Below, in pieces: positions 38,932 through 63,987 of a DNA stretch of 64,000 bases (positions are counted from its first letter, which is position 1; each line of letters begins with the position of its first letter). Source of the stretch: an uncultured Nitrososphaerales archaeon (lineage in GTDB: Archaea; Thermoproteota; Nitrososphaeria; Nitrososphaerales; Nitrososphaeraceae); assembly GCA_963713605.1 (NCBI GenBank), contig CAVQMO010000010.1, positions 1,066,676 to 1,130,675 on the forward strand, read 5' to 3'. The notes under the pieces were generated by a model. That model saw only the letters and a program-made list of their open reading frames with translations. It did not search any database and had not been told where the DNA came from. The translations under genes were made by a program, and so were the position numbers.

Positions 38932-38999
38932 CAACGTGTATTCTCTTCTAGTAGAATTTATATAAAAATGCTTATATACTATTGTTATACCCAGGTACT

Positions 39000-42358: not shown

Positions 42359-43381
42359 TTAGTGACTACCATTTCCTGCGGTAGGTATACTTATGAATGG
42401 TGTTTCTCCCCCTCCTGCTCCTCCACCTACCACTAGAGGCAACTGGCCATCCCATTTCTGGGATTTGAGCCAATCTAGATAGCTAGGACTCTGCCGCAGC
42501 TGCTCATCTATTGTGGTTATAGCTTGTGCTTCACCTTGTGCCTGTAGTACGTTCGCTTGTCTAACTCCTTCAGCTCTAGCAATGTTTGCTTGCTGCTCTC
42601 CCACTGCTCTTGCTTCTGCCTGTTGCGCCTCAATCTCAATTCTACGCAGCTCATTCTGTGCCTGCAATGCCCTCTGTTGGGCTGCTACTTTTGCCTCTAC
42701 TGCTCTTACGAATTCTGGTGAAAATTCAAACTCAGTAATTGATATTGCGTCTACGACGATATTGTATGCAGCTAATCTGGCCCTAATCTGTTGCTCAATC
42801 TCTGTTTTGACACTCTCTCTTTGAGTAATGAGCTCCTCTGCATTAAATCTGGCGGTTACTTGTTTGACCGACTCTTGAATTGCTGGTACAATCACTCTGT
42901 TTGCGTAATCAAGTCCTAGATTTTTGTAAACATTCTGTGCATTATCAGGATCTAGATGATAATTCAGTGCTACCTGTGTTCTTACGTCTTGAAGGTCCCC
43001 GGATGCAGAAGCTGCATCCTCTGTTATCCTTTGTGTTCTTACTTCCATCTGTACTACATTATCTCTTACTGGAACTACGAAATGAATCCCCTCATTTAAT
43101 GAACTACTAACGTCAACGGCACCGAAATTTAACAATACTCCTCTATTTCCAGCGTCGACGATCTTTACACTATTTGTAACTAGGAATGCTACTATGATTA
43201 TGCCAATTACTGCGGGAATGACTATTTTTATGAGTGAGTTTGATCCCTTACCGATTCCAGGTCCTCCTGATCCTCTACGAAAAAAACCACCTCCACCTGG
43301 AAATCTGTCACCCCCACCTGTGTCTTCAAGGGGCTCCCCTTCTGGAGTCATCTTTCTATTTTTCCCTGGTTTTAAGTTCAT
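42359..43381 (-). CDS. Prohibitin/SPFH (band 7) protein
   Basis: GNRGVLLNFG, EGIHF, SGDLQ, FNAEELITQRE, AVEAKVAAQQ, KWDGQLP. Confidence 0.93.
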   Translation of the reverse strand: MNLKPGKNRKMTPEGEPLEDTGGGDRFPGGGGFFRRGSGGPGIGKGSNSLIKIVIPAVIGIIIVAFLVTNSVKIVDAGNRGVLLNFGAVDVSSSLNEGIHFVVPVRDNVVQMEVRTQRITEDAASASGDLQDVRTQVALNYHLDPDNAQNVYKNLGLDYANRVIVPAIQESVKQVTARFNAEELITQRESVKTEIEQQIRARLAAYNIVVDAISITEFEFSPEFVRAVEAKVAAQQRALQAQNELRRIEIEAQQAEARAVGEQQANIARAEGVRQANVLQAQGEAQAITTIDEQLRQSPSYLDWLKSQKWDGQLPLVVGGGAGGGETPFISIPTAGNGSH

Positions 43382-45359: not shown

Positions 45360-45449
45360 CTAATCATTACTCCTTATGACCAGCATGCACATTCTCATAG
45401 CATCAAGCAAGTCATCAAATGAAGTTGCATCCTTATCAAGCATACCTTC
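45360..45449 (-). repeat. Terminase-like 3' tail copy A
   Basis: EGMLDKDATSFDDLLDAMRMCML...*. Confidence 0.8.
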
Positions 45450-45879
45450 CTTTCGTACCTACTTCCTTTTCATAGCGCTCTTTTGCAGTCGGGCATTGGT
45501 ACTGATTGTAACTGTAGTATATTGCAACGACCAATTTTGATACTAAGACAACAACCGGTAATCTACCCTTACCTTACCTTCGTGTATCGTTCCTGATTAT
45601 CTGAATTCTGACATTCTACCTCATAGAGTCGTTCCTCATTATCTGAAATGAATCGAACATTCTTTTGACAACAGGTAGATAGGTGTCAAAATAACCGGGT
45701 TCTGCCTGATATTTTATTTCAAACATTTCATTTTCAAGAGGAGCAGCCACTTCTAGCCATTTTCGAGTCTCATTATTGACATATGAGTAATGGACGATCT
45801 GATAAGCAGGAATCCCGGAGAGAGTAGTATTGGATTGGTCAACTAATCACTTACTTTATGTTTCCGTTAAAGTATGACT

Positions 45880-48458: not shown

Positions 48459-48867
48459 GTGAGGGTCATGTGTCGTTCCCTCTGTCGTCATTCTACACAT
48501 GTGACTCTTCATGATGATGCAGAGGGATATGCCGCGGGATGGAATCCTGGTAATGTTCCTATTACCCCCCTACAAATTCCTCCTATAATTAGCGCTCCAC
48601 CCTTCGGACTCATCACAATCAAATCACCGGTTGAGTTGGAGGGCTTCATTTTCTATAGAAGCCACGTTCGTAAATCCTCAGAATCCTGAAACATTCCAAA
48701 CACCAGAAGAACCACCTATAGTGATTACTAGAGCAGGGCAATGCGAACTGGGTGATGTTAATACATCTACAAATACATTTGGCCTAGATTGTACTCGGGA
48801 TGATGGTACTGGTTCTGTAAGTAGACCCCTTGATGGAGCCATCCTTACATATATTATCACTAAATAG
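48459..48867 (+). pseudogene. Hypothetical protein fragment
   Basis: Two overlapping frames (LHDDAEGYAAGWNP... / ...DGAILTYIITK*). Confidence 0.4.
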
Positions 48868-48894
48868 TCTCACAAGAGAGTAAAACTGACTCGA

Positions 48895-48987
48895 TCAATG
48901 GCAAAATAACAAACTCATTCGAAACGCATCGAATAAATCATCCTGGCTAGTTGCTTCCTTGTCTAATGCACCTTCCCCATTTTCTAG
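48895..48987 (-). repeat. Terminase-like 3' tail copy B
   Basis: LENGEGALDKEATSQDDLFDAFRMSLLFCH*. Confidence 0.9.
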
Positions 48988-49098
48988 AGAAACATTATTA
49001 GAGAACTATAGAAGAATCCATTCTTACATAACTATAGAAGAATCTTATATAAATGATGTTTACGTTATAATAGTTTTACAGTGAGATGATATGAGACG

Positions 49099-49278
49099 AT
49101 GAGATGGGAATGTATTTACTGTAACAGCGTAATGGATAGCACAAACTTTACAGAATTCATAAAACAAAGTGACAACGACAGGAACAGCGTTCAACAAGCG
49201 AAAGTGCAATATCATACTTGGAGACCGCTGCCAGAGTCAGGCGACGAGGCTAGTGCCAGAACAGAAGCGCTAGTCTAA
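49099..49278 (+). CDS. Small CxxC protein, paralog of 60580 ORF
   Basis: MRWECIYCNSVMDSTNFTEFIKQSDND...VQYHTWR. Confidence 0.6.
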   Translation: MRWECIYCNSVMDSTNFTEFIKQSDNDRNSVQQAKVQYHTWRPLPESGDEASARTEALV

Positions 49279-49612
49279 AACCGTCGAACAAATCGTCATA
49301 TGAAGTAGCATCTTTATCTAGGGACCCTTCTCCTTTTTCAACTGCCGTACGTAATGCGGTAATTAACTTCGCATGCTTGGGATTAATTTCTACTTGGCCA
49401 TCATTGTACTCGAGCATCTGCTTACAATGGGCAAGCATCTTTTTATGTTCCTTGGAAAATGCTACCGGGATCACAAACATATTTTCCTCCAGGAATTTCA
49501 AGTCGTAAATTGATGGGTACTGTTTCTTCAAATAAGAACATACGCGTTCATAGTTTGTATCCTCATCCAATCTTTCCTTTAAAGCACGGATAAAGGATGG
49601 ATTAGCGCCGGA
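49250..49612 (-). pseudogene. Terminase large subunit-like C-terminal nuclease fragment (longest tail copy, C)
   Basis: GANPSFIRALKERL...IPVAF...KLITALRTAVEKGEGSLDKDATSYDDLFDGFRLAL, resembling the DxAxP...DDxxDAxR RNase H-type terminase motifs. Confidence 0.6.
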
Positions 49613-49614
49613 AA

Positions 49615-49683
49615 CAATACCAGAACGCTAAACTCATTCGAAACGCATCAAATAAATCATCGGTTGACGTTGCTTCCTTGTCT
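49615..49683 (-). repeat. Terminase-like 3' tail copy D
   Basis: DKEATSTDDLFDAFRMSLAFWY, abutting copy C. Confidence 0.9.
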
Positions 49684-49856
49684 GCATTACTAAATCATCT
49701 TAGCGTACTTACTAAGTTAAAGGACTCAAGTTCGTACTTGGTAGCGTTCGACAGTAAATCTACGGAAGTCTCATTTAACTCTGGATCACCTGTTTCTACA
49801 AAGTCACGAAACAGAGCATAACTTGCACGCTCAGAATTCAAACTTTTTATGTATGT

Positions 49857-50282
49857 ATGGAAAGCAGGCAGCGTGAAGTAAGTGATATAAGAAGTATTGA
49901 AACAGGTATTCAATTCCTTTCTCAGGCTGAGAAAATGGATGAGCTTCATGATGAAATTGGCTTATCTAAGAATGGTTGTAGTTTTCTGCTGCAGCATCCC
50001 AATGGCCTAAAGATATCAGTTGTATCTTTCGAAGATTTGAGGGATGGTGAATTCCTCGAGTTAGCCCATTTTGGAAGACGTCCCAATGATATACAAAGGA
50101 AAAAATGGATTGCTGAAAATGGTATGCAAAAGGACCACGAGCGGCTAGCAGAAGTACTTAGGCAGAGGATGGAAGGCGAGATCCCGGATAAAAATATGAC
50201 CGCGGAAGAAGTGAAGGGCATAATATCATCGGCTCTCAACGATAGTAACAGTAGTAATAGTAGTAGTAGTACTAGGTACTAG
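49857..50282 (+). CDS. Hypothetical protein
   Basis: 141-aa ORF, Ser-rich end. Confidence 0.45.
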   Translation: MESRQREVSDIRSIETGIQFLSQAEKMDELHDEIGLSKNGCSFLLQHPNGLKISVVSFEDLRDGEFLELAHFGRRPNDIQRKKWIAENGMQKDHERLAEVLRQRMEGEIPDKNMTAEEVKGIISSALNDSNSSNSSSSTRY

Positions 50283-50890
50283 TGGCAATCGTAAGAGAAA
50301 GCGCAAAGAATGACTATTCGCTTTCTCGGAACTCCATTAGCCACGATCGACCAATCTTAATACTTAACACACGTTATAAAGCCACCTCATACTATCTCCT
50401 TACCGAGTGGCCTTAATAACAAGGAGAGCCTATCAGATTCAGGGCCTTACTAGGGTTCACAAATACTCGCTAGAACAAATATTGTATTTCCTTCTAAGAA
50501 GGACGATCGGTGGGCATTGGTCGTGTCGTTGACAATAACAGGCTAGACTCATCTGCATATTCCTACATTACAAATAAATCAAAGACGCTAAAAAGTAGTG
50601 GAGCCGGTATAGGATAGAGACCCGCCAACCACTGACCGTCCATATGAAGTAATATCTATTACTGTACCTTGCAGAACGGATAACTTCTTCATATGAAACT
50701 GTTTATTGTAATGATGGTATCTCCATGTGATCCTTTCCTGACCGCTTTAAATCACTGGGTGTGGTTGGGCCAAGTTAACGAGTTTATGCCTAAATAGGTC
50801 AAGAGTTAAGTCCTAACTACTTTGATGACAAATCGACTAGGACGAGCAGAAGCGCATTTTAACTAACTAACTACTTGACTAACTAATCGA

Positions 50891-50923
50891 CTAATGCCAG
50901 AACTCCAGTGACAATCTGAAACT
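50891..50923 (-). repeat. Terminase-like 3' tail copy E
   Basis: SFRLSLEFWH*. Confidence 0.8.
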
Positions 50924-50950
50924 CAATCTCAGTCATAAAAACATCTTTTA

Positions 50951-51018
50951 CATAAACTATAGATGATAAATCAGATTTAAGTAGAGAACATATCTCACCA
51001 AATCCAGATTAGTCATTT
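50951..51018 (+). promoter_or_regulatory. Conserved upstream element of collagen genes (copy 1; others near 52481 and 57530)
   Basis: ATAAACTATAGATGATAAATCAGATTTAA shared by three loci. Confidence 0.65.
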
Positions 51019-51047
51019 TGTGTTTTTGGATGCTTGTAGCAGAAGGT

Positions 51048-52367
51048 ATGGATAATAAGACCAACAACGGAAATCGAAAAATATCAGTTTCAGTAGTCAC
51101 GATAATGCTCATAGTTGGAGCAGTATCAACAGCACAACTATCGTCTATGGTAATAACTAATGGTAATGTAGTCTACGCCTATTCTGCCAATTCTGAATCA
51201 AGCAGCATCTCAAGTCATTAACTGCTCGGGACAAGATGAGAGTAGCCAAAATTGTGTAAACAATAATCTTGAAACGCAAGGAAAAGATAATGATGTAAAT
51301 GCTCAGATCTCGACACCATCAGGACCCCAAGGGCCTTCTGGACCTCAAGGACCGGAGGGACCCCAAGGACCACAAGGAGTGCAGGGACCAGCAGGTGCAG
51401 TAGGACCAGCAGGACCACAGGGTGAACAAGGACTACAAGGGATTCAAGGAATTCAAGGAGTTAAAGGAGATACTGGCGCTACAGGACCAGCAGGACCAGC
51501 AGGTGCAGAAGGACCAGCAGGACCAGCAGGTGCTAGTAGGACCAGCAGGACCAGCAGGTGCTGAAGGACCAGAAGGTGCTGAAGGACCAGCAGGACCAGC
51601 AGGCAGCAGGTGCAAAGGACAGCAGGCTGCAACAGGTACCAGTAGGACCAGCAGGTGCTGAAGGACCAGCAGGACCAGCAGGGCCAGCAGGTGCAATAGG
51701 ACCAGCAGGACCAGCAGGTGCAATAGGACCAGCAGGACCAGCAGGATGCAATAGGACCAGCAGGACCAGCAGGACCAGCAGGACCAGCAGGTGCAAAAGG
51801 ACCAGCAGGACCAGCAGGTGCAGCAGGTGCAATAGGACCAGCAGGTCCGAAGGACCAGCAGGTGCAGAAGGACCAGCAGGACCAGCAGGTGCAATAGGAC
51901 CAGCAGGACCAGCAGGTGCAATAGGACCAGCAGGACCAGCAGGTGCAATAGGACCAGCAGGACCAGCAGGTGGCAGCAGGTGCAATAGGACCAGCAGGTG
52001 CAATAGGACCAGCAGGACCAGCAGGTGAATAGACCAGCAGGACCAGCAGGTGCAATAGGACCAGCAGGTCCAGCAGGACCAGCAGGACCTGACAAGGTAT
52101 TACAAACTACGAGCTACAAGCAAATCCGCCCACTACAATTACGCCCAACTCGGGAATTGGAACTAGCATGGTGACCTGCCCTCCAGGAACAGTCGTGACG
52201 GGAGGAGGAATGGAGCTCCTCGGCGCCCAACCAAGTTACGTTCTCTGTTGAAACGGGCCACCAGATTGGCAATGGATGGACGGTTGAATTTTTTAATGGT
52301 ACTCCTACTTCTGCTAATGCCCAATTGCGTGCTGTGGCAACCTGTGCTTCACTAATACCACCTCTAG
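51048..52367 (+). CDS. Secreted collagen-like protein 1 (frameshifted; end approximate)
   Basis: Signal ..VVYAYS, NCSG...NCVNN, long GPA/GAI Gly-X-Y run, C-terminal [11 protein letters not shown]...ATCA. Confidence 0.85.
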
Positions 52368-52575
52368 GTACCTTAAGTAAGGACAAACCTCCACCTCTTT
52401 TTTTCCATTCAAACTTCCCACTCTTTTTATCTTTTTGAAACACGAATATTTTTAGAACACGAATATTTTTAGAATCCTTGATATAAACTATAGATGATAA
52501 ATCAGATTTAACTAGCAAACAGATTTCACCAAATCCAAATAAATCAATTTCCCCTTCTTGGTACCGCTAGAGAGC

Positions 52576-53601
52576 ATGGGAACCAATATTAGAAAAACCA
52601 AGGGAATTCGGACGTTATCTATGTCGGTAACTACGATATTGCTCGTTGGCAGCATCAGTGGTACAACTGTCGTCTATGACATTATCCAATGGTAATGTAG
52701 TTTACGCGTATTCTTCCAACTTTAATTCGGCAGCGTCTCTTGTCATTAACTGTTCAGGAGATCATGAGAGTAGTCAAAATTGTGTAAACAATAATCTGGA
52801 ATCACAGGGAAAAAATAATGACAATAATGCGCAGGTAAGCACACTACCTGGACCGCCAGGACCTCAAGGACCAGCAGGACCAGCAGGATCACAGGGTGAA
52901 CAAGGACTACAAGGAGTTAAAGGAGATACTGGCGCTACAGGACCAGCAGGACCAGCAGGTGTACTAAGGACCAGCAGGATCACAGGGTGAACAAGGACTA
53001 CAAGGAGTTAAAGGAGATACTGGCGCTACAGGACCAGCAGGATCACAGGGTGAACAAGGACTACAAGGAGTTAAAGGAGATACTGGCGCTACAGGACCAG
53101 CAGGATCACAGGGTGAACAAGGACTACAAGGAGTTAAAGGAGATACTGGCGCTACAGGACCAGCAGGATCACAGGGTGAACAAGGACTACAAGGAGTTAA
53201 AGGAGATACTGGCGCTACAGGACCAGCAGGACTCACAGGGTGAACAAGGACTACAAGGAGTTAAAGGAGATACTGGCGCTACAGGACCCGCAGGTGCAGT
53301 AGGACCAGCAGGACCACAAGGAGAGAGTGCAACCACGCAGGTATTGCAAGCCAGAGTTACTGCTACAAATTTCAAGACCATACCTTCGGGTACGGGCGAC
53401 CAGGTTTTCGCACCATCATGTGCATCTGACGAGGTTGTGACGGGAGGGGGAACGTTTACTACCGGAAGTCAAAACAACGAAAATAAACTTGAGGATACAA
53501 GTGCTTTCGGCCCTGGGAGTTTTAGGATTATCAATCCCGGTCCAAATGCAGTAAATATAGGTGCATACGCAATATGTGCAAAGTTAGTCGACGCACCCTG
53601 A
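52576..53601 (+). CDS. Secreted collagen-like protein 2 (frameshifted)
   Basis: Paralogous N-terminus; 63-bp unit [21 protein letters not shown] about 6 times; [11 protein letters not shown]...AYAICAKL. Confidence 0.85.
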
Positions 53602-53617
53602 CTCTCTTTTGTATTTT

Positions 53618-53688
53618 CTAGTGCCTAAATGCATCCACCAGGTCATCATATGACGTTGCTTCCTTGTCCAGGACGCCTTCTCCCCATT
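53618..53688 (-). repeat. Terminase-like 3' tail copy F
   Basis: GEGVLDKEATSYDDLVDAFRH* (internal deletion). Confidence 0.9.
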
Positions 53689-53842
53689 AATCCTAAATCA
53701 AAATCTAAGACCAAAACAGAGGACACATCATGAAGAGGCTCCATTACGTTATCAGTTAAAGATCTAGTTATTTATTTTCTGGTTTCATGTGGTCTTAAGT
53801 TTACCTACCCGGAAGGGAGATCAGCAACAGCATATCGACACA

Positions 53843-54466
53843 ATGACTGCTGAAAATGCTGCCACCGATTTGTTGCCATGGATTGTTGCCGGAATCACCG
53901 GGATAGGAGTAGTAGTTTCCTTTATTACATTTTGGTTTCAGCGGGAAAGATCTCATGAGACTGCTAAAGCAGAGAAACAAAGAGTTCTTCTCGCTAGATT
54001 AGCAGAAGCCTTTCGATTGTTATATGATGTAAGACATAGAGTGGCGCGAAAAGTTGTTTACGGTAATCCTGACCCTTCATCATTTGAAATCATTGGACTT
54101 AATAGGCCTACAGTTGAAGGAAATTATAGTTATGACGAACTGACTCGAATATGCAAAGAGATAGTGAAAAATGATTGCAACGAAATCGGCGTTCTAGCAC
54201 ATCATGGTCTTGTAGACGGAGATAAATTCATCGAAGAAGGCTTTTGGGTTATTCTGAAAGTCTGGGACCTCCTAAAGGATGACATAGTGGAAAGACGAAA
54301 AAGAGATTCATTAATGAAGTTATATATCCCTAAAAGTGCACAAAGGAGTCAAATGAACGTCCTGATGCCACTAAGGGACTCTCATCTGACTATGGTCTTC
54401 AGGTTCCTCCATATGGTTTTCAAGACCTTCATTTGGACTAGAGTATTCAGAAATACCGTCTGGTAA
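53843..54466 (+). CDS. Membrane-anchored DUF4760-like protein, C-terminus probably chimeric
   Basis: N-terminal TM; NDCNEIGVLAHHGLVD...W..LK..I.ERR pattern. Confidence 0.5.
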   Translation: MTAENAATDLLPWIVAGITGIGVVVSFITFWFQRERSHETAKAEKQRVLLARLAEAFRLLYDVRHRVARKVVYGNPDPSSFEIIGLNRPTVEGNYSYDELTRICKEIVKNDCNEIGVLAHHGLVDGDKFIEEGFWVILKVWDLLKDDIVERRKRDSLMKLYIPKSAQRSQMNVLMPLRDSHLTMVFRFLHMVFKTFIWTRVFRNTVW

Positions 54467-54589
54467 TAGGTCAAGGTGTGGGGGAAAATGTTCTGAACAA
54501 TAATAGTTAGTGCATTTTTTACATTGAGCGGTTGGCTTGTAATACCATACTCTTTTGGTAAAGAATTGCCCTAGATTCTGAGTACCCAA
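54371..54589 (-). CDS. Small Zn-finger-like protein fragment
   Basis: CKKCTNYYCSEHFPPH. Confidence 0.4.
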   Translation of the reverse strand: MGTQNLGQFFTKRVWYYKPTAQCKKCTNYYCSEHFPPHLDLLPDGISEYSSPNEGLENHMEEPEDHSQMRVP

Positions 54590-54701
54590 AAAAATAGTTT
54601 AAGCAAGCCAGAATTGCAAATAATATCGAAAGAAAAGGAAAGAAAAAAGAATGGACACTCTCTTTGCTGGTCGAAATAAATGACCTATTGCTAATCTTAT
54701 G

Positions 54702-55349
54702 TTACTTTCCTTTATCTCCGATGATTTCCACGAATCTGCTCTCAGGACCAAATACGATAGTCAAAACCCTCTCCTGACTGTTTCCCTCAGACTGCTTGAA
54801 ACTATTAAAGATGTTGGGGCAATCTCCGATACATATTCCACTCTGTTCACCACCTATCCTGTCACCATCCATCACAACAGTATATGGCTTGTCTTTATTG
54901 TCAGCAGCCTTGGAGTCTATGAAGTTTCTAGGTAATTGAACCTCTAAGGCACCTCCTTCTACGCCGCTTTGAGGATTAAGAGCAAGATATAATGCATTTC
55001 TATCAGGATTTGCTAGCATTCCAACGAGTGAACCTCCGATGATGTTATAACTAATAGGATTCGGTTGACCATCAGCCATTACGTCATACTTATTTGCATA
55101 GCCCGGGGCTGCGAGTGTTTTGAGCACGTCAATATCGACCTGATCAATAGCACTTGCATTTTCTATTTGCCCAGTAGCATTCTGTCCAGTAGCATTCTGT
55201 CCAGTAGCATTCTGCCCGTTTACCAATTCGAAAGGCATTACCGAAGTTCCGATGAAAATAACGCTGGCCAAAGTCAATGACAAAGCCACAAGTGGAAAAG
55301 ATATCTTCATCCTATTCTTGGATTTTACAACTAAACTACTTTCTGTCAT
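54702..55349 (-). CDS. Secreted protein with NATGQ repeats
   Basis: Signal peptide; NATGQ x3; LEVQLPRNFIDSK...VMDG...RVLTIVF...EIIG thaumarchaeal surface domain. Confidence 0.75.
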   Translation of the reverse strand: MTESSLVVKSKNRMKISFPLVALSLTLASVIFIGTSVMPFELVNGQNATGQNATGQNATGQIENASAIDQVDIDVLKTLAAPGYANKYDVMADGQPNPISYNIIGGSLVGMLANPDRNALYLALNPQSGVEGGALEVQLPRNFIDSKAADNKDKPYTVVMDGDRIGGEQSGICIGDCPNIFNSFKQSEGNSQERVLTIVFGPESRFVEIIGDKGK

Positions 55350-55426
55350 TAGAACAACTAACCTGAAAGATATTTATTAATCTTCGAGAACATAATTACA
55401 GCATGTTCTTACATCATCGTCATATA

Positions 55427-55543
55427 TCAATGCCATACTGCAAGGATAGTCTAAAACTATCGAATAGGTCGTCATGACTAGTCGTATCTTTGTCTAATGT
55501 GCCTTCACCATTCTACCGCAGTCCTTAACGCAGTGATTAACTG
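55427..55543 (-). repeat. Terminase-like 3' tail copy G
   Basis: LITALRTAVE/NGEGTLDKDTTSHDDLFDSFRLSLQ..WH*. Confidence 0.9.
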
Positions 55544-55821
55544 CCAAACTAATTAAACAGATCTTCATGTTCCTGGTGGGTGGCAACGACACTGACATGT
55601 CGCAGTTCCAGATTCAACAGGGGCCACTCCGGAACATTCAATATGCTTTTCGTCTCTGCATGCCTGAGATAATACCTCTTCAGTCAACGAATTATCCATA
55701 GGAGGCAATACATATAAGACATTCCAGAAAAGCAGTTCGGGCCAATCAGTATGTTGGTCGCTTCAATAATCTAAATATGGAATGATCCAAGTTATAAGAC
55801 CTGTTCGAAATACATGAGTTA

Positions 55822-56868
55822 ATGACTACCCTTATGGTTGGAATTCACAATTCTGTTCTCGTGCTTGATTCCTCAGATGATTTTAAGATTAGGGAGATTT
55901 CCAAAGGTGGTAATCCACAAGGTAAAGAGTCAGAATCTCCAGGGCATAAGCCATCGTGCATAGCATTTGATCCTCAAAACTCCCATCGTGCATATTGGGG
56001 TATTTTCAATAATGGCCTGTGGAAAACAGATGATCGTGGCCAGTCCTGGGATAACATTGGAAAAGATAGTTTCTCCAGCCCACGAATCATGTCCGTTGCG
56101 GTTAGTTCTCTGAATAGTGGAAATAAATCTAACAAAGTATATGCAGGAACCGAACCAAGTGCACTCTATGTTTCAAATGATGGAGGAGATAGTTGGGAAA
56201 GAATGAAAGCATTAAATGATTTACCCTCGTCAAAAACATGGAGCTTTCCACCGAGACCATATACTCATCACGTTCGTTGGATTGAACCAGATGCAACCAA
56301 TCCTGATTATCTATTTGTCGCTATAGAAGCAGGAGCCCTGGTGCAAAGCCGTGATGGAGGTAAAACTTGGATGGACAGAGTTAAAGGAGGCCCGTATGAC
56401 ACACATACTTTAGCTACTCATCCAAAAGCGCCCAAGCGCCTCTACTCCTCTGCAGGCGACGGGTACTATGAAAGTCTTGATTATGGAGAATCATGGAATA
56501 GACCCATGGAAGGATTGAAACATAGTTACCTTACTGGGATAGCAGTTGATTCGGGTAATCCTGATGCTGTGATTGTCTCAGCCTCTGATGGCCCTTTCAA
56601 GTCATTCTCTCCCAACAGCGCTGAAACATTTCTATACAGAAAAGATGATGAAGATGGCAAAAAATGGAAGGTTGTTTCAGACGGTGTTCCTCACCCAAGT
56701 GGAACTACTATGTCGATCTTGGCATCAAATCAAAAGGTTCAAGGAGAGTTTTATGCCGTCAATAATCATGGTGTCTTTATTTCGAACGATTTGGGTGAAT
56801 CATGGAGGGAACTTACTAATGAATGGCCCAACGAAAGTACTCCTTTGGCGCTTGCTGTTTCCGAATAA
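55822..56868 (+). CDS. BNR/Asp-box beta-propeller protein
   Basis: Asp-boxes TDDRGQSW, SNDGGDSW, SRDGGKTW, SLDYGESW, SNDLGESW; WSFPPRP.THHVRWI. Confidence 0.9.
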   Translation: MTTLMVGIHNSVLVLDSSDDFKIREISKGGNPQGKESESPGHKPSCIAFDPQNSHRAYWGIFNNGLWKTDDRGQSWDNIGKDSFSSPRIMSVAVSSLNSGNKSNKVYAGTEPSALYVSNDGGDSWERMKALNDLPSSKTWSFPPRPYTHHVRWIEPDATNPDYLFVAIEAGALVQSRDGGKTWMDRVKGGPYDTHTLATHPKAPKRLYSSAGDGYYESLDYGESWNRPMEGLKHSYLTGIAVDSGNPDAVIVSASDGPFKSFSPNSAETFLYRKDDEDGKKWKVVSDGVPHPSGTTMSILASNQKVQGEFYAVNNHGVFISNDLGESWRELTNEWPNESTPLALAVSE

Positions 56869-56898
56869 TGGTAAAGGGACATTACTAAATAATTTACA

Positions 56899-57009
56899 CA
56901 TGCCAGAACTGCAGAGACATTACGGAATGTTGCGACTAACTTTGTATGTTTAGGATTGGTTGTCGAAATGCATCAAACAAGTCATCATGGCTAGTGCTTC
57001 CTTGTCCAA
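56899..57009 (-). repeat. Terminase-like 3' tail copy H (two pieces)
   Basis: 56963-57009 LDKEA.SHDDLFDAFR; 56899-56928 FR.MSLQFWH. Confidence 0.85.
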
Positions 57010-57068
57010 TATGAAGTCAAGGTAAGGTGGAGAAAACTAATAGTCTAGTCTTTTGATTAAGGAGAATA

Positions 57069-57468
57069 TTGGATAATCAAGAAATACGTGCGATTCTGGA
57101 TCGTTATTGGGAAGCCACGTTAGCTCATGATTTAGAGAGGGTGCATGAGTTTTATCATGATGATGTTGTAGTCGAATTTCCACAATCTGGCGAACGCATT
57201 CGGGGCAAGCAAAACATATACGATCTCAGAGCACACTACCCCACTGAGGCTACTTATAAAATCCTGAGAGTTCGTGGAGATGGAAATCTCTGGACTACTG
57301 AAGTGACTGTCAACTATGAGAATGACAATGAACGCCCAGTCAATGGGGTAGCCATCATGGAGTTTCGAAATGATAAAATCGCACATGAAACACTCTATTT
57401 TGCATATCCATTTGAACCACCTGAGTGGAAGATCTCAATGGGTCGAGATTGTCAAGGATAACAAGTAA
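57069..57468 (+). CDS. SnoaL/NTF2-like protein
   Basis: YHDDVVVEFPQSGERIRG...EFRNDKIAHETLYFA.PFEPPEW; probable terminal frameshift. Confidence 0.85.
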
Positions 57469-57480
57469 ATGACTTGGTAA

Positions 57481-57507
57481 TCAGTGCCAGAACTGCAGAG
57501 ACAATCT
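57481..57507 (-). repeat. Terminase-like 3' tail copy I
   Basis: RLSLQFWH*. Confidence 0.8.
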
Positions 57508-57529
57508 GGCGGCGTCATAGGCTTCTTTG

Positions 57530-57645
57530 ATATAAACTATTGATGACAAATCAGATTAAAATACCAATCATATTCTCCAGAACCCAGATAAATTATTTAG
57601 CAGGACCGCCCGGAGTGACAGGAGTGACAGGTGCTCAAGGAGACC
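57530..57645 (+). pseudogene. Collagen gene remnant (promoter fused to a Gly-X-Y fragment)
   Basis: Third copy of the collagen upstream element directly followed by AGPPGVTGVTGAQG. Confidence 0.6.
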
Positions 57646-58258
57646 ATCCCTTCAGTGATTTATATGCCTCAGGGGTAATGAAGGTAAAGTATTGTTCCTC
57701 GTCCCCGGCATATACTATTAGTTTGGCGGCCAGGATATCATCCTCAGTATCATTACACCAAGGAATTACGTGTTTCCATTTAAGGTAATCCCATGCACCA
57801 ATTCTGATCCCTGAAGAGACCATTGTAAAGACTATGGGTTTAATTCTTCTGTCAGGGTATTCAATAATGATTTTTATTTCCTCTAGACTTGGCGCCCTGT
57901 CATTGGCGGCTTTTCCCGAATGGGGCAAACCGCGCGATATCTTCTTCCAATTCAATACGATGTCATTCATTTCACAGAATAATTTGGTTGCCCTATTGTA
58001 ATTTGGGATGGTACATTCTGCTATCTCGCCTCTTTTGGCTACAAATGCCATAAGACTTTCTTCACACCACTTAAGATCCTTGCTTGCCGTCAGATAGAAT
58101 TGTTCGGCCTGTTCAACTAAAGAGCCTTTCAACCCCAAGTAATCAAGAAATATTTTGAATCTGCGTGGATACTGTCGCTTAGATTCTGGTGCCTTTAGTG
58201 CGTACGTGAAAACAGTCATCGGGTCTTTTCTTGGTCTTTCTATGGGTCCTCTAAGCAA
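57635..58258 (-). mobile_element. Tyrosine recombinase/integrase, C-terminally truncated
   Basis: ALKAPESKRQYPRR, DRAPSLEEI, MVSSGIRIGAW (box I Arg), YFTFITPEA; no HxxR or catalytic Tyr. Confidence 0.85.
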
Positions 58259-58304
58259 ACTTCCTATTCTTTTATGGCAGTGGGCATAATTAAAGGGACA
58301 AGAT

Positions 58305-58332
58305 TGGCGCGGGCTCGGAGGGATTCGGAACC
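58305..58332 (-). other. tRNA 3'-end remnant (T arm + acceptor strand), probable att site
   Basis: GGTTC(C)GAATCCCTCCGAGCCCG, like the 3' end of archaeal tRNA-Arg, about 50 bp upstream of the integrase. Confidence 0.6.
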
Positions 58333-58834
58333 TTTGAGTATGCGGGTTCGTTTGCTAGTTAGAAGTGCTGTAAGTATTATGCAGACTCAGGATTTTCTAA
58401 TATCGTTAGCGATACCATTCGTGAAGGTTTAAAACTGGCCAACTGGCAACAACACACAAACCCACGTAATGAACCCAGAAAAAAATATTGGGTTTGTCTA
58501 ACTTGACCTACAGCTTTTTCCAGCCTCTAATATTCTGTCGATTGCTGCCCTGTCTAGTCTACCAGCCTTCCATAACTCTGATAGTAGTTGGTTTAGAAGC
58601 CTTGTTAGATTAGAGTTCTCGGGAATGTTTACTTTTCCTTCTGCCGCGCTCATACCTGTCTGTCTCAACCTTTACTTAGTTGTCGTTGCTTTAAGCATGT
58701 TTTGCAAGATATTTTCAAGGTGTGATTCGGAAGTGTCCTATTACCCAATACTGCGTATACATTGTTTACCATGGTGGGTTTATTATGCGCTGGAAATAGT
58801 AAAGGAACTATCTTCTTACGTTACCTAATAAAAA

Positions 58835-59110
58835 CTACTTTTTCTTATTATAATACGACCGTAGATCTTTCATGACTATCTTAAACCTATTCTCTAAACT
58901 ATCTAGTCTTTGACCCATTCTTTTATCGTCTTGGTGAGTATCGATAAGGTATCTGTATGCACTATCAATTGCTTTAAGGTAAGCGTATACATATGACTCT
59001 ACTGGTATATCCCTTGCCTGTACTTTCACGCCCTTCACGCTCCACTAATTCTTTGTATACCATTTCACCTTTGTTAATTATAATCTCTTCCAACTCTTTT
59101 TCATTCGACA
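58835..59110 (-). CDS. Hypothetical protein (frameshifted)
   Basis: MSNEKELEEIIINKGE.../KGVKVQARDIPVESYVYAYLKAID... Confidence 0.4.
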
Positions 59111-59238
59111 TTTTATGTCTAGATAAATTAGACACAGATATAAAATTACGGGGTTTCAGTAGAAGAAGAATAATAGGTGGTGAGATGTAAAACCATGCCC
59201 CAGATAGACCCCCACTCACTGCCAGGACAACTTCTTTT

Positions 59239-59340
59239 CTATCTTCGATTTACAGCATGGCAACGACACTCGCATGTAAAGGTATCGCTCCATTTACACG
59301 ATCTATGATTGTTTGTTAGGCATCCCAATGATAATTGCAT
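59239..59340 (-). CDS. 33-aa Cys/His-rich microprotein, copy 1
   Basis: MQLSLGCLTNNHRSCKWSDTFTCECRCHAVNRR*; paralog at 61089-61190. Confidence 0.75.
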   Translation of the reverse strand: MQLSLGCLTNNHRSCKWSDTFTCECRCHAVNRR

Positions 59341-59413
59341 TATTTACTTGATTTAATAATAGTCGGAGATCCTAAAAAATAGTGTATTACGATTGTTAAG
59401 GGGTTTGGGTAAT

Positions 59414-59500
59414 TTAATCCATAAATAATGCTAAATATCGATGTCCTCTCTGTGTGATTCGATACCGAGAGGGCCCCGTGAATTCATTTTCAGACAACAT
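59414..59500 (-). pseudogene. Winged-helix gene 3' tail, copy 1
   Basis: SENEFTGPSRYRITQRGHRYLALFMD*. Confidence 0.6.
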
Positions 59501-59536
59501 CTCTGCATACTATGGATCTGTCTTCCTGACAAACTG

Positions 59537-59875
59537 TTATGACGGATCATCAACTAATAGAGAATAGTTCTGTATCTTCAATAGGTCTGATACTGACGAT
59601 TCAAGTATCCTGAACTGAAAAGGGGCTTTCTCTCCTGCAGGTATAGTATCAGGAGTAACATACGTTATGTCGGTTCCTATAACATTTCCTTCTGCGTCGT
59701 ATAGTGTCGCCGATATCTCTACTATACCTACATCCCCGTTTCCATTGTTTATAACCTCTCCTGCTATATGATATGAAGGCGTCAACTCATTATTGTCTAG
59801 CCACGATTCTGTTTTGCCTACTATTTCTACTTGTGCTAGCACTTGTGTATTTAGAATCCCTAATATTCCTACCAT
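59537..59875 (-). CDS. FxLYD-domain protein
   Basis: HIAGEVINNG...ISATLYDAEGNVIG...IPAGEKAPF. Confidence 0.85.
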   Translation of the reverse strand: MVGILGILNTQVLAQVEIVGKTESWLDNNELTPSYHIAGEVINNGNGDVGIVEISATLYDAEGNVIGTDITYVTPDTIPAGEKAPFQFRILESSVSDLLKIQNYSLLVDDPS

Positions 59876-60225
59876 GGTAAAAAAGATACCAATGATAACA
59901 CTATATCATATATTTGTCCACCTACAAATCGGCTTAAGTCTATCTTTGTAGGAGCCAGAATATTGTAATATTGTTGTATACCAATTGACCTAGACTCGTC
60001 CTTTTGAATTAGCGCTGACACTATATGTTGGGGAGGTGGAGGTGAATATGGTTGCTGGACTTGCATCTGCATAGTAGGCTGCTGGGGCTGCTGCTGTTGA
60101 GTCCCCGTCTGGGCATTGAAGTTGGGACGTAGAGACGAAGATAACAAAGGCAACAGAAGAAAGCATACTATTAGCACCGCTAATTTCCTGGATATTGGTC
60201 CATTAATTATCACCCCTAACTGCAA
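59869..60225 (-). CDS. Hypothetical secreted protein fragment
   Basis: Signal-like segment then Q/P-rich linker. Confidence 0.4.
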   Translation of the reverse strand: MQLGVIINGPISRKLAVLIVCFLLLPLLSSSLRPNFNAQTGTQQQQPQQPTMQMQVQQPYSPPPPQHIVSALIQKDESRSIGIQQYYNILAPTKIDLSRFVGGQIYDIVLSLVSFLPW

Positions 60226-60404
60226 ACTATAAGCAATCTAGAGAGAAGTATTATGTAAACATTCAGTAAAGAGATTACATAGGCCTTACTAACTCCTTTT
60301 GACGATGGTTCGATTCATTCCTGAGGAATCAATCAATTCAATTGTAGATTCGATAATGGTAGCACCCTGTCCTTCAATAATTTGTCTTCATTTGGATCTT
60401 GTAT

Positions 60405-60475
60405 GGGTTATTACCTATCGCTGCTGGTCTGTGGATATTTCTAGCATAATTTCACCGTAGGCCTGTAATAGCCCT
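60405..60475 (+). repeat. Imperfect hairpin element, copy 1 (copy 2 at 60887-60961)
   Basis: GGGTTATTAC...GTAATAGCCC outer stem with inner GGTCTGTGG/CCGTAGGCC stem. Confidence 0.65.
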
Positions 60476-60579
60476 TCTATAATTAACCGATTAATTACTC
60501 CCCTATAGAAGTCAAAGGGGGAGACTTACAGAACTATGTGTGAACCTGTTATAAGCAATGACAAATAAGATGAGGCCGC

Positions 60580-60843
60580 ATGAGAGAGGAAATGAAGTGG
60601 GTTTGTGTGGATTGTAACAAAGTATTGGACAAAACCAACTTCGTCGATTTCATAAAGGAAAGTGACAACGATAAATATAGCAATCAAGAAGCGGTAGGTA
60701 CAGTATCACCACTGGAGATTTCTGCTGCCACCAACCTCATCGTCGTCATCATCATCAGAGGAGGAACACGAAATGGTAGACGTTCCTTGGCCCAAGCGGA
60801 CCATAATCTAAGGCCAGCCAGGCTTACTTTCTCTAGTCTCTAA
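60580..60843 (+). CDS. Small CxxC protein, paralog of 49099 ORF (frameshift near 60695)
   Basis: MKWVCVDCNKVLDKTNFVDFIKESDND...VQYHHWR. Confidence 0.6.
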   Translation: MREEMKWVCVDCNKVLDKTNFVDFIKESDNDKYSNQEAVGTVSPLEISAATNLIVVIIIRGGTRNGRRSLAQADHNLRPARLTFSSL

Positions 60844-60886
60844 CGACGGGAGAGGCTTATTTAGTTTAATGCACAACTGTCTATAC

Positions 60887-60961
60887 GGGGTTATTACTAT
60901 CCACCCTGGCCTGCGGATATTTCCTAGTACAGAATTTCACCGTCAGGTCGGTAATAACTCC
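60887..60961 (+). repeat. Imperfect hairpin element, copy 2
   Basis: GGGGTTATTAC...GTAATAACTCC outer stem with inner GGCCTGCGG/CCGTCAGGTC stem. Confidence 0.65.
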
Positions 60962-61088
60962 TTCAAACTTGAAGATAAACGTTCTGTTCGAATATCAAAG
61001 TATTAATCTGTCAATGATTAGCAAAACATTCCCTCAATGATCAGTTATTCCAGAAATTGAGCCGTTGTCTTCATTATCTTTGTTATTT

Positions 61089-61190
61089 CTATCGTCGATT
61101 TTCAGCGTGGCAGCGACATTCGCAAGTAATGTTATCGCTCCACTTACATGCCCTATGATTGTTTGTCAAGCACCCTAATGATAATTGCAT
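61089..61190 (-). CDS. 33-aa Cys/His-rich microprotein, copy 2
   Basis: MQLSLGCLTNNHRACKWSDNITCECRCHAENRR*. Confidence 0.75.
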   Translation of the reverse strand: MQLSLGCLTNNHRACKWSDNITCECRCHAENRR

Positions 61191-61275
61191 TATTTACTTA
61201 TCATAATAATAGTCGGAGATCCTAACTAGTGTATTACGATTGTAACGGGGTCGGGTAAAAATAAGAGGGTTATGG

Positions 61276-61539
61276 CTAGGTTGGACAATCTCCTAACGCT
61301 TTCTCGGCACCTTCGTTGGCTTGTTGTATTCCTCTGTCACTTGCATGAGTTGTAGTATCAGGCTCGGTCTTTGCATCCTGCTTTCCTTCTAAATCAAGCA
61401 TTTTATCACATGCCCTATCCGAACGTGAGTCTTCGCCAGAACTTGCGAATGATATTGCTATTGTGGAAGACTCTAGTACAGCCATCACAGAGGCAGATAT
61501 CGCCCCTAACATTAATCCCATGAGTATGGTCTTTTTCAT
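61276..61539 (-). CDS. Small secreted protein
   Basis: MKKTILMG signal peptide; two Cys; upstream TATTTATA box. Confidence 0.65.
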   Translation of the reverse strand: MKKTILMGLMLGAISASVMAVLESSTIAISFASSGEDSRSDRACDKMLDLEGKQDAKTEPDTTTHASDRGIQQANEGAEKALGDCPT

Positions 61540-61622
61540 TGCAGGGCCAGGCTATAGCGACGAAGTATAAATAGGTACGGCAGAAGAATCATTGCCCGAA
61601 CGTCATCGATAAAGGAAATTAC

Positions 61623-61706
61623 TCATTCGGTAAATAAGGACAAATACCGTTGTCCTCTCTGAGTTATTCGATACCGATATGGACCTGTTATATGATCTTC
61701 AGAACG
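61623..61706 (-). pseudogene. Winged-helix gene 3' tail, copy 2
   Basis: SEDHITGPYRYRITQRGQRYLSLFTE*. Confidence 0.6.
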
Positions 61707-62482
61707 CGACCGACTCAGTAATCTGTGAGCGATCTCAACCGCAGTATCGGAAGTGACGAATTCTGTAGTGACAATCCAAGTCATTTTGCATGTGATGGAA
61801 AGGTAGGAAACAGTCAAGATGATAACGAAGATGACCCTGATTATAGAACAGAGAGTGATCTAACTGATGCAGAAAAAGAAGAGAAAAAGACAGATACAAA
61901 AGGAGCCTGTTAGGGCGACGACTATGAAGGATTCTTAGTGGGAGAACTGCCAGAAGTTAGGTGATACAATTTATGATTCCTCGTAAGTCACCTACTTCTC
62001 CTCCTTTATTCGTTGGATATCAGTAACACTGGGTGCTATCTCTGCCTCTACTGCTTCACGTCTTTTTACCTCTAGCGTTCTCAAGATATCGTGTATTGCC
62101 TCTGCGGTAAGCCTGTGACTTTCCGCTTCGCCTATTTCACCGTTATGGACATAGCCCTCAGCCAATGTTGCTTGTCTATAGGCTCAAGTGATAGGTGGCC
62201 CATCGTCAACTCCATATCCGAACGGTCGATGCCTCTCAGGAGGTTGGATAAATTACTAAGTCTCTTTTCTCTCTTATCTTCCGACTGGTTAGACATAATA
62301 ACCATTATTCATAAAAATATTTAGATATATTCAATTTCACGGGGTATCCTCGTAGACAGAACATAAATACGTAAAAGACTACCGAAGAGATAGTTTGTCA
62401 ATCAATCTTTCATTTCTTGCATCATACGGTAACAGGGTCATTATTGACCTCGCAATAACACAAATGACCTAAATCTTTGATT

Positions 62483-62551
62483 CTAATGCCAGAACAACAA
62501 TGACATCCTGAATGCGTCCATAAGGTCGCTTCTTTGTCAAGCGATCCCTCC
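62483..62551 (-). repeat. Terminase-like 3' tail copy J
   Basis: EGSLDKEAT/LMDAFRMSLLFWH* (short internal deletion). Confidence 0.9.
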
Positions 62552-62587
62552 CGCAGGAAATCCTTAAGTAAAGAGGCCCATTATCAT

Positions 62588-63865
62588 ATGCATTTGTCAT
62601 TAAAGATAATAGCAGTAGTTCTTTCAGTTTATTCAATATCATTCTTATTTTGTGGTGTAGCCTTCACAGTTCATGCTCAATCGGACTTGCAGACAACAAA
62701 ATATAGAAATATGGTTATAGATTTGGGTAATGGTTTAAAGACTAACGCTAGGCTAAATCTTCCATCCAATGGGGACGGTCCCTTCCCAGGTGTTCTTCTT
62801 GTACCTGGCTCTGGAAAGACGGATATGAATGAAACTGCAGGCTACGTTCACATAGATAACGAAACAGGCTCAATTATTTATCCGCCTGGTAGACCGTTCT
62901 TTGAAATAGCCGAATATCTTTCAGAAAGAGGTTTTGCAGTATTGCAGTATGACAAGAGAGGTATTGGCGCGAATCTGACAGTTCTGGATAGCAATGTATG
63001 GGGGAATGTAACTGTTGATGAACTAAAGCAAGATGCAGAGAAGGCCTTAAATGTTCTTATACAGCAACCAGAGGTGGATGCTAGCCATGTAACTCTAGTT
63101 GGACATAGCGAGGGTACAACGATTGTCCCAAGAGTTGCAATCGACAATCCAGATAAAGTAGATAATATTGTACTGATGGGGACCTTGGCCCAAAACTTGC
63201 GTGAAATAGGATACTTCCAAGGTGTTACGAACCCAGTACACTACGCTCAACAGGTTCTAGACCATAATCACAATGGATTGATATCAGTACAAGAAGCGTC
63301 TGAGAATCCTATTTTTAATACTATTTTTGGGAACCTTACTCTATTTCTTGCTCAAAATATAACTGCTACAAATGGAACATCCGAACAACTAAATCCCCGA
63401 TATAATACGAATAATGATACTTTCATAAGTATTAATGAAGAACTCAAACCTAGGATAATAAATTTTATCAAATCATTTTCATCTCAGGTTGTAACACCAG
63501 GTGAAAAGTGCGATCCCCGTAACACCTGTCCCATTTGGCTTAAAACGCATTACCCTACACCTACTATAGATATCATAAGTAAAGTTCCATCAGATACATC
63601 TATTCTAATACAACAAGGGAAGAATGATTCACAAACCCCAATACAGCAAGCACTTCTTTTACAGCAGGAACTGACAGAAGTAAGACATCCTGATCATACA
63701 TTGATAACATACTCTGACCTCGGCCATGCTTTCTATCCTTCATCTCAATGGGTAACTGCTTTTGGCCCAATGGAACAAAAGGTTCTGGAAGATCTTTTTG
63801 GCTGGCTTTCAGATCCAGTCAGAGACTTTAAGAAGTTAACCATTTTATCTTCGCAAATGCCTTAG
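62588..63865 (+). CDS. Secreted alpha/beta hydrolase
   Basis: Signal peptide; VPGSG..D, YDKRG, GHSEG nucleophile, QGKNDSQ, LGH. Confidence 0.9.
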   Translation: MHLSLKIIAVVLSVYSISFLFCGVAFTVHAQSDLQTTKYRNMVIDLGNGLKTNARLNLPSNGDGPFPGVLLVPGSGKTDMNETAGYVHIDNETGSIIYPPGRPFFEIAEYLSERGFAVLQYDKRGIGANLTVLDSNVWGNVTVDELKQDAEKALNVLIQQPEVDASHVTLVGHSEGTTIVPRVAIDNPDKVDNIVLMGTLAQNLREIGYFQGVTNPVHYAQQVLDHNHNGLISVQEASENPIFNTIFGNLTLFLAQNITATNGTSEQLNPRYNTNNDTFISINEELKPRIINFIKSFSSQVVTPGEKCDPRNTCPIWLKTHYPTPTIDIISKVPSDTSILIQQGKNDSQTPIQQALLLQQELTEVRHPDHTLITYSDLGHAFYPSSQWVTAFGPMEQKVLEDLFGWLSDPVRDFKKLTILSSQMP

Positions 63866-63913
63866 GTTGTTAGCAGATTCCTCATCTGTAACGCGAATGA
63901 ATCGATAGCCAGA

Positions 63914-63987
63914 TTAATGCCAGAACTGCAGTGAAAGCCTGAAGTCCTCAGTGACTCACCATACTGCAAAGACAATCTGAATGTATC
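63914..63987 (-). repeat. Terminase-like 3' tail copies K and L
   Basis: 63914-63943 FRLSLQFWH*; 63958-63987 DTFRLSLQY. Confidence 0.8.

Follow-up and report, generated by a model that had tools for sequence, protein, structure and literature searches.

The 64,000-nucleotide stretch of DNA analysed here (the window) carries eleven 5'-truncated 3' ends of the gene for the large terminase (TerL), all on the minus strand and hereafter called tails. With a probability of roughly 0.6, these tails are leftovers of capsid-less elements whose core was lost while their cargo was kept, and they now act as homologous landing and swap points by which same-strand rows are stacked. The host is likely a soil ammonia-oxidising archaeon; its genome is 87% complete and the assembly is indel-prone.

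Terminase gene ends across the genome

The TerL assignment comes from profile comparison (phrog_2, E 1e-24 to 6e-21), and the top fold matches are T4 gp17 and the D6E, HK97 and Sf6 terminases; searching the PDB by sequence added no information. A DNA profile built from three full terL genes gave 162 matches genome-wide at E<=1 and none in the reversed genome, so the tails are not due to chance. The count of 122 tails fell to 116 distinct ones, in 52 clusters, once six duplicated contig copies were removed. Coverage of terL is strongly skewed, with 119 copies of the 3' end versus 3-8 of the 5' half, and in five other genomes the last 56 aa of TerL gave 291 matches versus 86 for the conserved 106-aa core. 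An assembly artefact was rejected as the source of this bias, since five other, more fragmented assemblies show it too. Within the family, 66 of 101 genomes give a match.

Neighbouring tails agree in strand in 19/19 pairs less than 1 kb apart and in 18/20 at 1-3 kb, versus 8/23 at 10-50 kb. An integrase remnant lies within 10 kb of 31% of tails, against 13% at random. No ordering of rows by length was found: the first tail is the longest in 15 of 34 rows (13.9 expected), which argues against an ordered, newest-first displacement and weighs on the preferred reading, as does the excess of tail loci (116) over integrase and TerS-like loci (21 each). GC skew, inspected for a link between tails and replication direction, is flat.

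The array in the window

The array contains a terL 3' remnant of about 165 nt with a decayed end (45381-45546, minus strand, profile match), which lies ahead of the region covered by the first-pass annotation, and a small plus-strand ORF (48631-48867) converging on a 95-nt tail, also a profile match (48895-48989, minus); the same tail-plus-ORF end is met again at C3:8429 (prefixes denote contigs of the assembly). A 59-aa Cys-pair ORF (49099-49278, plus), whose flank recurs behind tails of 46-361 nt at six loci, overlaps the stop of the longest tail of the window (P0001, 361 nt; 49250-49610, minus). Another tail is fused directly ahead of this one (49616-49689, minus), and a 167-nt piece (49687-49853) that is 85% like the host stretch at C1:974574 is joined to the 5' end of the tail. 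The gene just downstream of that host stretch presumably encodes an S-adenosylhomocysteine hydrolase. A second integrase stub, considered at 49695-49949, was discarded, as the segment matches the host stretch instead.

A 32-nt tail (50891-50922, minus) has its 5' junction fused to the promoter-like upstream repeat of a collagen-like cargo family (50943-51019, plus; family D14), other copies of which lie at 52474-52550, without a tail, and at 57523-57599. Two collagen-like genes, frameshifted in the assembly (51018-53601, plus), are followed by a tail with an internal deletion (53618-53683, minus). A 215-aa cargo protein with an N-terminal hydrophobic stretch (54702-55349, minus) is encoded co-directionally with its own tail (55427-55542, minus), and a 96% identical block in genome G007 sits behind a 413-nt tail. 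Comparison of junction and downstream sequence identifies this window tail as a chimera: its 5' junction matches locus L039 of G007, while the remainder and the downstream DNA match locus L031.

A BNR/sortilin-type beta-propeller gene (55822-56868, plus), other copies of which lack this tail, is separated from the start of a SnoaL-like gene (57069-57461, plus) by a tail with an internal insertion and a mutated stop codon (56897-57009, minus). The SnoaL-like gene is followed by a 39-nt tail (57481-57519, minus) whose upstream sequence matches C5:25854 at 97.5% identity as far as the stop and whose downstream sequence is of SnoaL type, and by an N-terminal stub of an element-type tyrosine integrase on the strand of the tails (57635-58258, minus). 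Further on, a 150-nt insertion made of a tail end and about 95 nt (62388-62539, minus) is 99% identical to C10:874454-874589 and is lacking from the allele at C1:573497; a tail of 70 nt by profile (62483-62552, minus) lies mostly within it. Finally, an alpha/beta hydrolase gene (62534-63865, plus), multi-copy in this genome and its relatives, precedes a double tail at the contig end (63914-63999, minus), which recurs at C1:556030-556067 with a different downstream sequence. For half of the window between 44 and 64 kb, a homolog exists at another place in this genome. The array is not anchored at a tRNA (the nearest is 27 kb off, and Rfam gave no matches in 37000-64000), and a scan for promoters and terminators of bacterial type, unsuited to archaea, remained at chance level. 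No close strain sharing the island was found, which counts against the preferred reading.

The first-pass annotation had described cargo genes ending just ahead of a convergent tail, and all five plus-strand examples are present, with gaps of 27 bp (48867/48895), 16 bp (53601/53618), 28-30 bp (56868/56897-56899), 19 bp (57461/57481) and 48 bp (63865/63914). Whether these distances are shorter than random placement would give, a condition it set, was checked genome-wide: a convergent gene ends within 60 bp in 19 of 115 cases (16.5%) versus 6% (Fisher p 6e-5), the baseline being random intergenic points near tails, with draws that are not independent and genes from a simple caller. Of the 11 tails in the window, however, just 6 have a close convergent gene, even counting the small ORF at 49099-49278; the gene after tail 55427 runs co-directionally, tail 49616 is succeeded by another tail, and across the 115 tails the next gene is convergent in 58 cases and co-directional in 57. 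The idea of cargo plus terminase tail as the unit is supported in part: the slot behind terL is variable and neighbours change places at tails; a fixed gene-then-site geometry is not supported. Both reported cases of a promoter close to a truncated tail 5' end (50923 and 57507) represent one inherited junction family and so a single event. The same annotation proposed to look for homologs of the cargo at terminase 3' ends, and homologs of the window cargo do lie behind longer stretches of terL, or the whole gene, at other loci: 413 nt of terL precede the 215-aa gene, 881 nt precede SnoaL and 690 nt the 3' flank of the hydrolase, and cargo of the collagen-like type is also found near full terL. 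By a heuristic call, 24 of 69 genes behind tails encode an N-terminal hydrophobic stretch, against 724 of 3686.

Parent element, exchange at tails and competing explanations

Intact elements have the order integrase, primase, TerS-like gene, terL (L011+L105, L015, L126, L133-134 and L136), and bring variable cargo directly behind terL, where the gene differs between elements. They combine a feature of PICI-like satellites (tyrosine integrase plus primase/helicase module) with one of head-tail proviruses (Caudoviricetes), the large terminase. The TerS-like protein is an HTH protein encoded upstream of terL and called by position only; a paralog weakly matches phrog_7344. In L030, terL is followed by an unassigned 328-aa ORF.

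The viral family first proposed as the source of the tails is not supported if a provirus is meant, since neither capsid nor portal was found here or in 7/7 genus genomes searched. A Pfam search for HK97-type capsid and portal gave no matches; a first viral scan with one protein was empty; the 587 ORFs taken from 50 related viral loci gave matches that include no capsid or portal; and profiles of the capsids and portals of the viral loci matched 1/81 family genomes and 0/7 genus genomes. A divergent capsid could escape all of these searches. Judged by its sequence, intact terL is under purifying selection (dN/dS 0.055-0.084 in 7 of 10 pairs, the other three being saturated). All 31 aligned TerL proteins have another residue in place of the Walker A lysine. 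A dead motor was rejected as the meaning of this replacement: it also occurs in all 48 motif-showing viral loci (of 50), several of which have capsid or portal matches, and is thus a clade trait. The pattern used for the scan fixed the motif as far as the lysine position, which was itself left free.

On the preferred reading, the elements would travel as satellites in the shell of a helper virus and integrate through their own tyrosine integrase; no helper was found for this genus, a point against it, and no clear attachment repeats were seen at four intact elements. Deletion would have removed the replication-packaging core, which is missing from the loci as they now stand, or DNA beginning within terL may have been inserted at another place by microhomology of a few bases, giving a new 5' junction. 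Crossovers within tail sequence, with a second tail or an intact terL as the partner, would then swap the downstream DNA, as the chimeras suggest, so that a given junction comes to stand before many cargos and orientation within rows is preserved. General or homology-facilitated recombination may provide the enzyme; general recombination would have little length to work on in tails of 35-100 nt at about 75-85% identity, which again tells against this reading.

The alternative of decay alone, by which stacked elements would each have left a tail behind independently and the tails would have no role in later exchange, has to be weighed against the comparison of related loci. In 19 of 21 families, one cargo is found behind tails that differ greatly in length and extend up to the entire terL gene, and in 10 of 13 junction families one truncation junction leads to more than one downstream cargo type; together, these point to tails as real exchange points. 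Alignments of loci sharing a junction end between -6 and +19 of the stop in 21 of 32 cases, and in 19 three-way comparisons, read by eye and several of them too diverged to read, switch points spread from about -110 to -3. These patterns, the chimeric tails and the lack of enrichment near tRNAs (a tRNA within 10 kb of 13% of tails versus 17% at random) make decay alone improbable, although some loci look as it would predict: a decayed tRNA-Met island, with an integrase, six tails and no primase-like match, is bounded by two tRNA 3'-end repeats 2.1 kb apart with a tail between them, and a Trp codon has become a stop in 9 of 92 tails. Of the 405 repeat ends near tails, 364 lie outside them, as decay would have it, and 41 inside, versus 18.7 expected; tails are preferred, not exclusive, boundaries. 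Among 193 tails examined, two gave filled/empty pairs, both clean insertions with a 1-nt overlap and without an attachment repeat, and deletion of resident elements therefore cannot account for every junction.

Slightly ahead of decay alone, and still unlikely, is the proposal that the virus-derived terminase drives an integrase-independent cassette system in soil ammonia-oxidising archaea: TerS-TerL would cut at or close to the terL 3' end, tail-led cargo DNA would be packaged or released and pasted into recipients, and the more than 100 tails of each chromosome would be the landing pads for assembling and shuffling the flexible genome. It would explain why 71 of 90 A-type junctions fall within the last 120 nt of terL, a pile-up steeper than we can show trimming alone to give and hence a difficulty for the preferred reading. 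The two clean insertions, which start inside terL, a third tail-led junction some 10 nt away from one insertion, and purifying selection on terL without a capsid are also consistent with it, as are the acidic residues predicted for the nuclease, kept in nearly all 31 aligned TerL proteins. Against it, intact terL is as diverged at synonymous sites near its 3' end (0.44-0.51) as in the remainder of the gene, with no drop; no conserved DNA was seen past the stop, nor a conserved pac or att site in the tail; the inserts start widely apart (-70, -436 and -889); and the flexible genome is rich in other mosaic pieces (742 repeat pairs).

Integrons depend on IntI, attI and attC. The tails resemble them in that small cargo units lie between co-oriented short repeats in varying order, and an element integrase acting on a site in the last terL codons could excise and insert circular cassettes; the tails on both sides of SnoaL in 6 of 13 copies examined, the many switches in the last 30-45 nt and the integrase stub in the window would agree with this. 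The integron-like site of the earlier description does not hold up, since IntI, attC, hairpin, fixed crossover and uniform gene orientation are all lacking, and this explanation is very unlikely. The best match to the IntI model TIGR02249 in the 87% complete genome reaches 32 bits against a cut-off of 265, the attC core pair occurs in 0/90 tails versus 11/2000 random windows, mean hairpin z is -0.16/-0.13 versus -0.28 in the control, variation in tails follows codon position, switch points and cargo orientation (58:57) are not fixed, and of the 16 integrase loci on contigs with a tRNA call, 3 lie beside tRNA genes. That a homing endonuclease repeatedly gave terL new 3' ends and displaced the old ones is most improbable: displaced gene ends would be its expected scar, yet HNH gave two matches, at least 27 kb from any listed tail, LAGLIDADG_3 none, and junction positions vary continuously.

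Relation to known systems

Comparisons in this section follow the published descriptions. The cryptic integrated element NitKor-E1, found once in Ca. Nitrosopumilus koreensis AR1 and described as enigmatic and a likely relic, shares TerS, TerL, a tyrosine integrase, the lack of other virion genes and an ammonia-oxidising host with the elements reported here (PMC6563490). By that description, it differs in that terL is here selected across many elements, with 3' ends amplified more than 100-fold and recombined, and its terminase may be recast from an enigmatic relic as a selected, testable function. Tycheposon islands also combine integrase, replication module and cargo, grow by stacking of degenerate elements and leave remnants and partial tRNAs; as described, they are sited at tRNAs and their repeated scar is a partial tRNA (bioRxiv 10.1101/2020.12.28.424599), whereas the dominant scar here is the terL end, without tRNA enrichment and itself the swap point. 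PICIs and marine VEIME satellites similarly have an integrase, primase/helicase and small-terminase gene and need no capsid, and in the account given they carry TerS and are presumed to obtain TerL from their helper (PMC9618062); the elements described here, putative satellites, encode their own TerL. Rows of displaced 3' parts are also found in the Vibrio cholerae T6SS immunity orphan arrays and Rhs loci, where a conserved anchor is the proposed site of homology-facilitated illegitimate recombination, with ordered displacement at one fixed chromosomal locus in the description (PMC5361080); here the clusters number 52, the anchor gene is mobile and length order is absent.

Stacking and shuffling based on tails, as a form of island accretion, was not found in the literature searched. 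Dispersed mobile-gene ends serving as exchange points would give integron-like modularity without an integron, and tails would offer a countable marker of past acquisition that points to one abundant element family as a main carrier of accessory cargo in uncultured soil Nitrososphaeraceae, whose accessory genomes are large and mosaic. The sequencing runs that contain the stretch are from soil and rhizosphere.

Terminase gene ends in the genome and the family

Full-length relatives of the tails, i.e., of the 5'-truncated 3' ends of the large-terminase gene terL, are about 495 aa long and match the PHROG terminase large subunit; the best structural matches of a predicted TerL model (pLDDT 77.5, pTM 0.53) are likewise large terminases. 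In the source genome, 90 A-type and 26 B-type distinct terL fragments extend to the 3' end and 25 further fragments stop short of it, with a coverage of 119 at the final 30 nt versus 3-8 across the 5' half. The last 56 aa of TerL gave 47, 110, 38, 48, and 48 matches in five other genomes, and a better conserved 106-aa TerL core, used for comparison, gave 17, 32, 8, 10, and 19 in the same order. The phenomenon is real and family-wide: the tail protein was matched in 66 of 101 family genomes (15 of 18 genera), and the full TerL gave no match in 12 genomes from other families. Because differences between tails lie chiefly at third codon positions and nothing common to them was found 3' of the stop, their sequences identify the tails as descendants of many diverged, formerly functional terL alleles.

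The window is the final 64 kb of contig C10 in an assembly of 4.09 Mb that is 87% complete and prone to indels, and the tail array extends to the contig end. Since Nitrososphaeraceae is the source label of the tail protein's close homologs, a soil-dwelling ammonia-oxidising archaeon is the likely host. A DNA profile search of the window detected 11 tails, every one of them minus-strand, and, at the extreme end, a second, partial tail; the same profile found nothing in the reversed genome. All five stop-to-tail pairs listed in the first-pass annotation are present, with gaps of 27, 16, about 28, 19, and 48 bp. The proposed geometry, in which cargo (an accessory gene beside a tail) stops just before the tail, holds as a tendency and fails as a rule: among the 115 tails genome-wide having a downstream gene call, the next gene is convergent for 58 and co-directional for 57, and a convergent gene lies at most 60 bp away for 19, versus 6% of random intergenic points. 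Both examples of a promoter near a tail come from a single junction family of five members. Tail strand is the same in near-neighbour pairs almost without exception; distant pairs show no such agreement.

Parent elements and viral relatives

Intact terL is found within 10-25 kb stretches with tyrosine integrase and primase, helicase or polymerase genes, where an HTH gene occupies the TerS position and variable cargo lies ahead of, among and behind the core genes. Seven of 10 pairs of intact terL give a dN/dS of 0.055-0.084, the other three being saturated. The ends of four intact elements were looked for and none was established. TerL of related type is present in 50 viral loci, in several of them together with capsid or portal matches, and an apparently complete head-tail provirus with related-clade TerL (L103-L104; contig C1 of the relative G097, about 2.243-2.262 Mb) is a candidate type of helper virus; capsid and portal profiles from the viral loci, run against 81 genomes, matched G097 only. 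In the TerL tree, ten clearly virus-type rows split from the capsid-less elements with support of 100/100, and three long-branch viral rows were left unplaced.

The Walker A lysine is absent from this TerL clade, in capsid-less elements and capsid-carrying viruses alike (alignment A1; loci L051-L100). TerS-like/TerL/zinc-finger modules stand in tandem, with cargo in between, on G089:C43 (L133 6512-17948), and locus L011 holds two intact terL, 78% identical and 3.7 kb apart. By eye, a tRNA-like sequence adjoins the integrase of L134 (ARAGORN and Rfam gave no call). Two unassigned ORFs (228 and 328 aa) separate terL from an integrase at L030 7863-9541, the 328-aa one resembling a prohead protease by eye only.

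Probable stacking and core loss, and exchange within tails

At the tRNA-Met site C10:850575, six same-strand tails come after an integrase, as do two tRNA 3'-end repeats that have one of the tails between them; primase queries found no match in this island. The arrangement is one of stacking plus core loss. The window carries its own integrase stub, on the strand of the tails. Tail-led insertion is visible as a second route, filled/empty pairs being present for 2 of the 193 tails examined. One pair concerns 150 nt inserted at window 62388-62539, with microhomology of a few bases; the insert is 99% identical to C10:874454-874589, and an allele on contig C1 with flanks 97% and 92% identical lacks it. 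The other concerns a tail-led 2.5-kb insertion of the relative G001 that is absent at the corresponding site of contig C3.

Junctions were analyzed in 175 A-type tails from the source genome and fetched loci of relatives. With singletons scored as distinct types and kin not independent, 10 of 13 tail families with a common 5' junction have more than one downstream type, and 19 of 21 downstream families have different junctions, on tails from about 40 nt to full-length terL. Shared-junction alignments (n=32) end at -6 to +19 of the stop in 21 cases, end earlier in 5 and continue in 6; because the tails are all homologous, this pattern places the downstream swap somewhere inside the tail instead of at its stop. 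Two loci of the relative G007 are clearly combined in the tail at 55427, with a switch near -110, and the switch falls within the final 45 nt in other chimeric tails. Repeat ends fall in tails 2.2 times as often as expected, yet most of those nearby (364 of 405) are outside them.

We favor, with a probability of roughly 0.6, a scheme in which satellite-like elements would bring in cargo located behind terL, the element core would then be lost, and tail/terL homology would stack and shuffle the cargo; helper-dependent spread and the identity of the recombining enzyme are the parts that we infer. Its tidy version is opposed by the lack of any length order of tails within rows and by a sharp clustering of junctions within the final 120 nt of terL. 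This clustering keeps alive a model in which TerL cleavage would lie behind the junctions, itself unlikely. Passive decay alone fits worse and seems improbable, integrase-driven cassettes are a worse fit and very doubtful, and homing endonucleases, fitting worse too, are hardly credible.

The integron-like reading of the first-pass annotation was not borne out. In modularity the tail array resembles an integron cassette array, but it belongs outside that family: it has no IntI, no attC core and no hairpin, and neither a fixed crossover nor a uniform orientation. Intact terL shows no additional DNA-level conservation at its end. The array represents a form of mobile-element island accretion where a virus-derived terminase gene end is scar and swap point at once. 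Arrays of terL tails were not found described in the literature on Nitrososphaeraceae/Nitrososphaerales terminases, truncated terminases with repeats and islands, and genome expansion (mostly open-access texts); the supplements of PMC6563490 (NitKor-E1) list further elements, possibly relevant to the tails.

Other features of the window and its relatives

Unrelated cargo follows a gene that we take to be phoU-like in three genomes (window 37600 onward; L050/L119; L048), and G003 has an opposite-orientation tail row at this site. At 38982-40754 lies a long surface-type gene, Ala/Gly-rich and of low complexity, that has a repeat tail and is broken up by many assembly frameshifts, and a Band 7/SPFH gene (42359-43381) has four or more paralogs in other parts of the genome. 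Copies of the 320-nt piece at 58831-59164, 80-89% identical, lie in at least five places of the genome and in most genomes of the genus, and the piece may be a gene remnant or a small mobile element. A non-coding-looking repeat of 140-170 nt (59216-59412 and 61086-61258), without a match in Rfam, has more copies genome-wide. In G000, an 11.5-kb block present in three copies at 99% identity (C12:377833-389318, C2:78568-89999, C13:1-11422) is probably strain or assembly redundancy.
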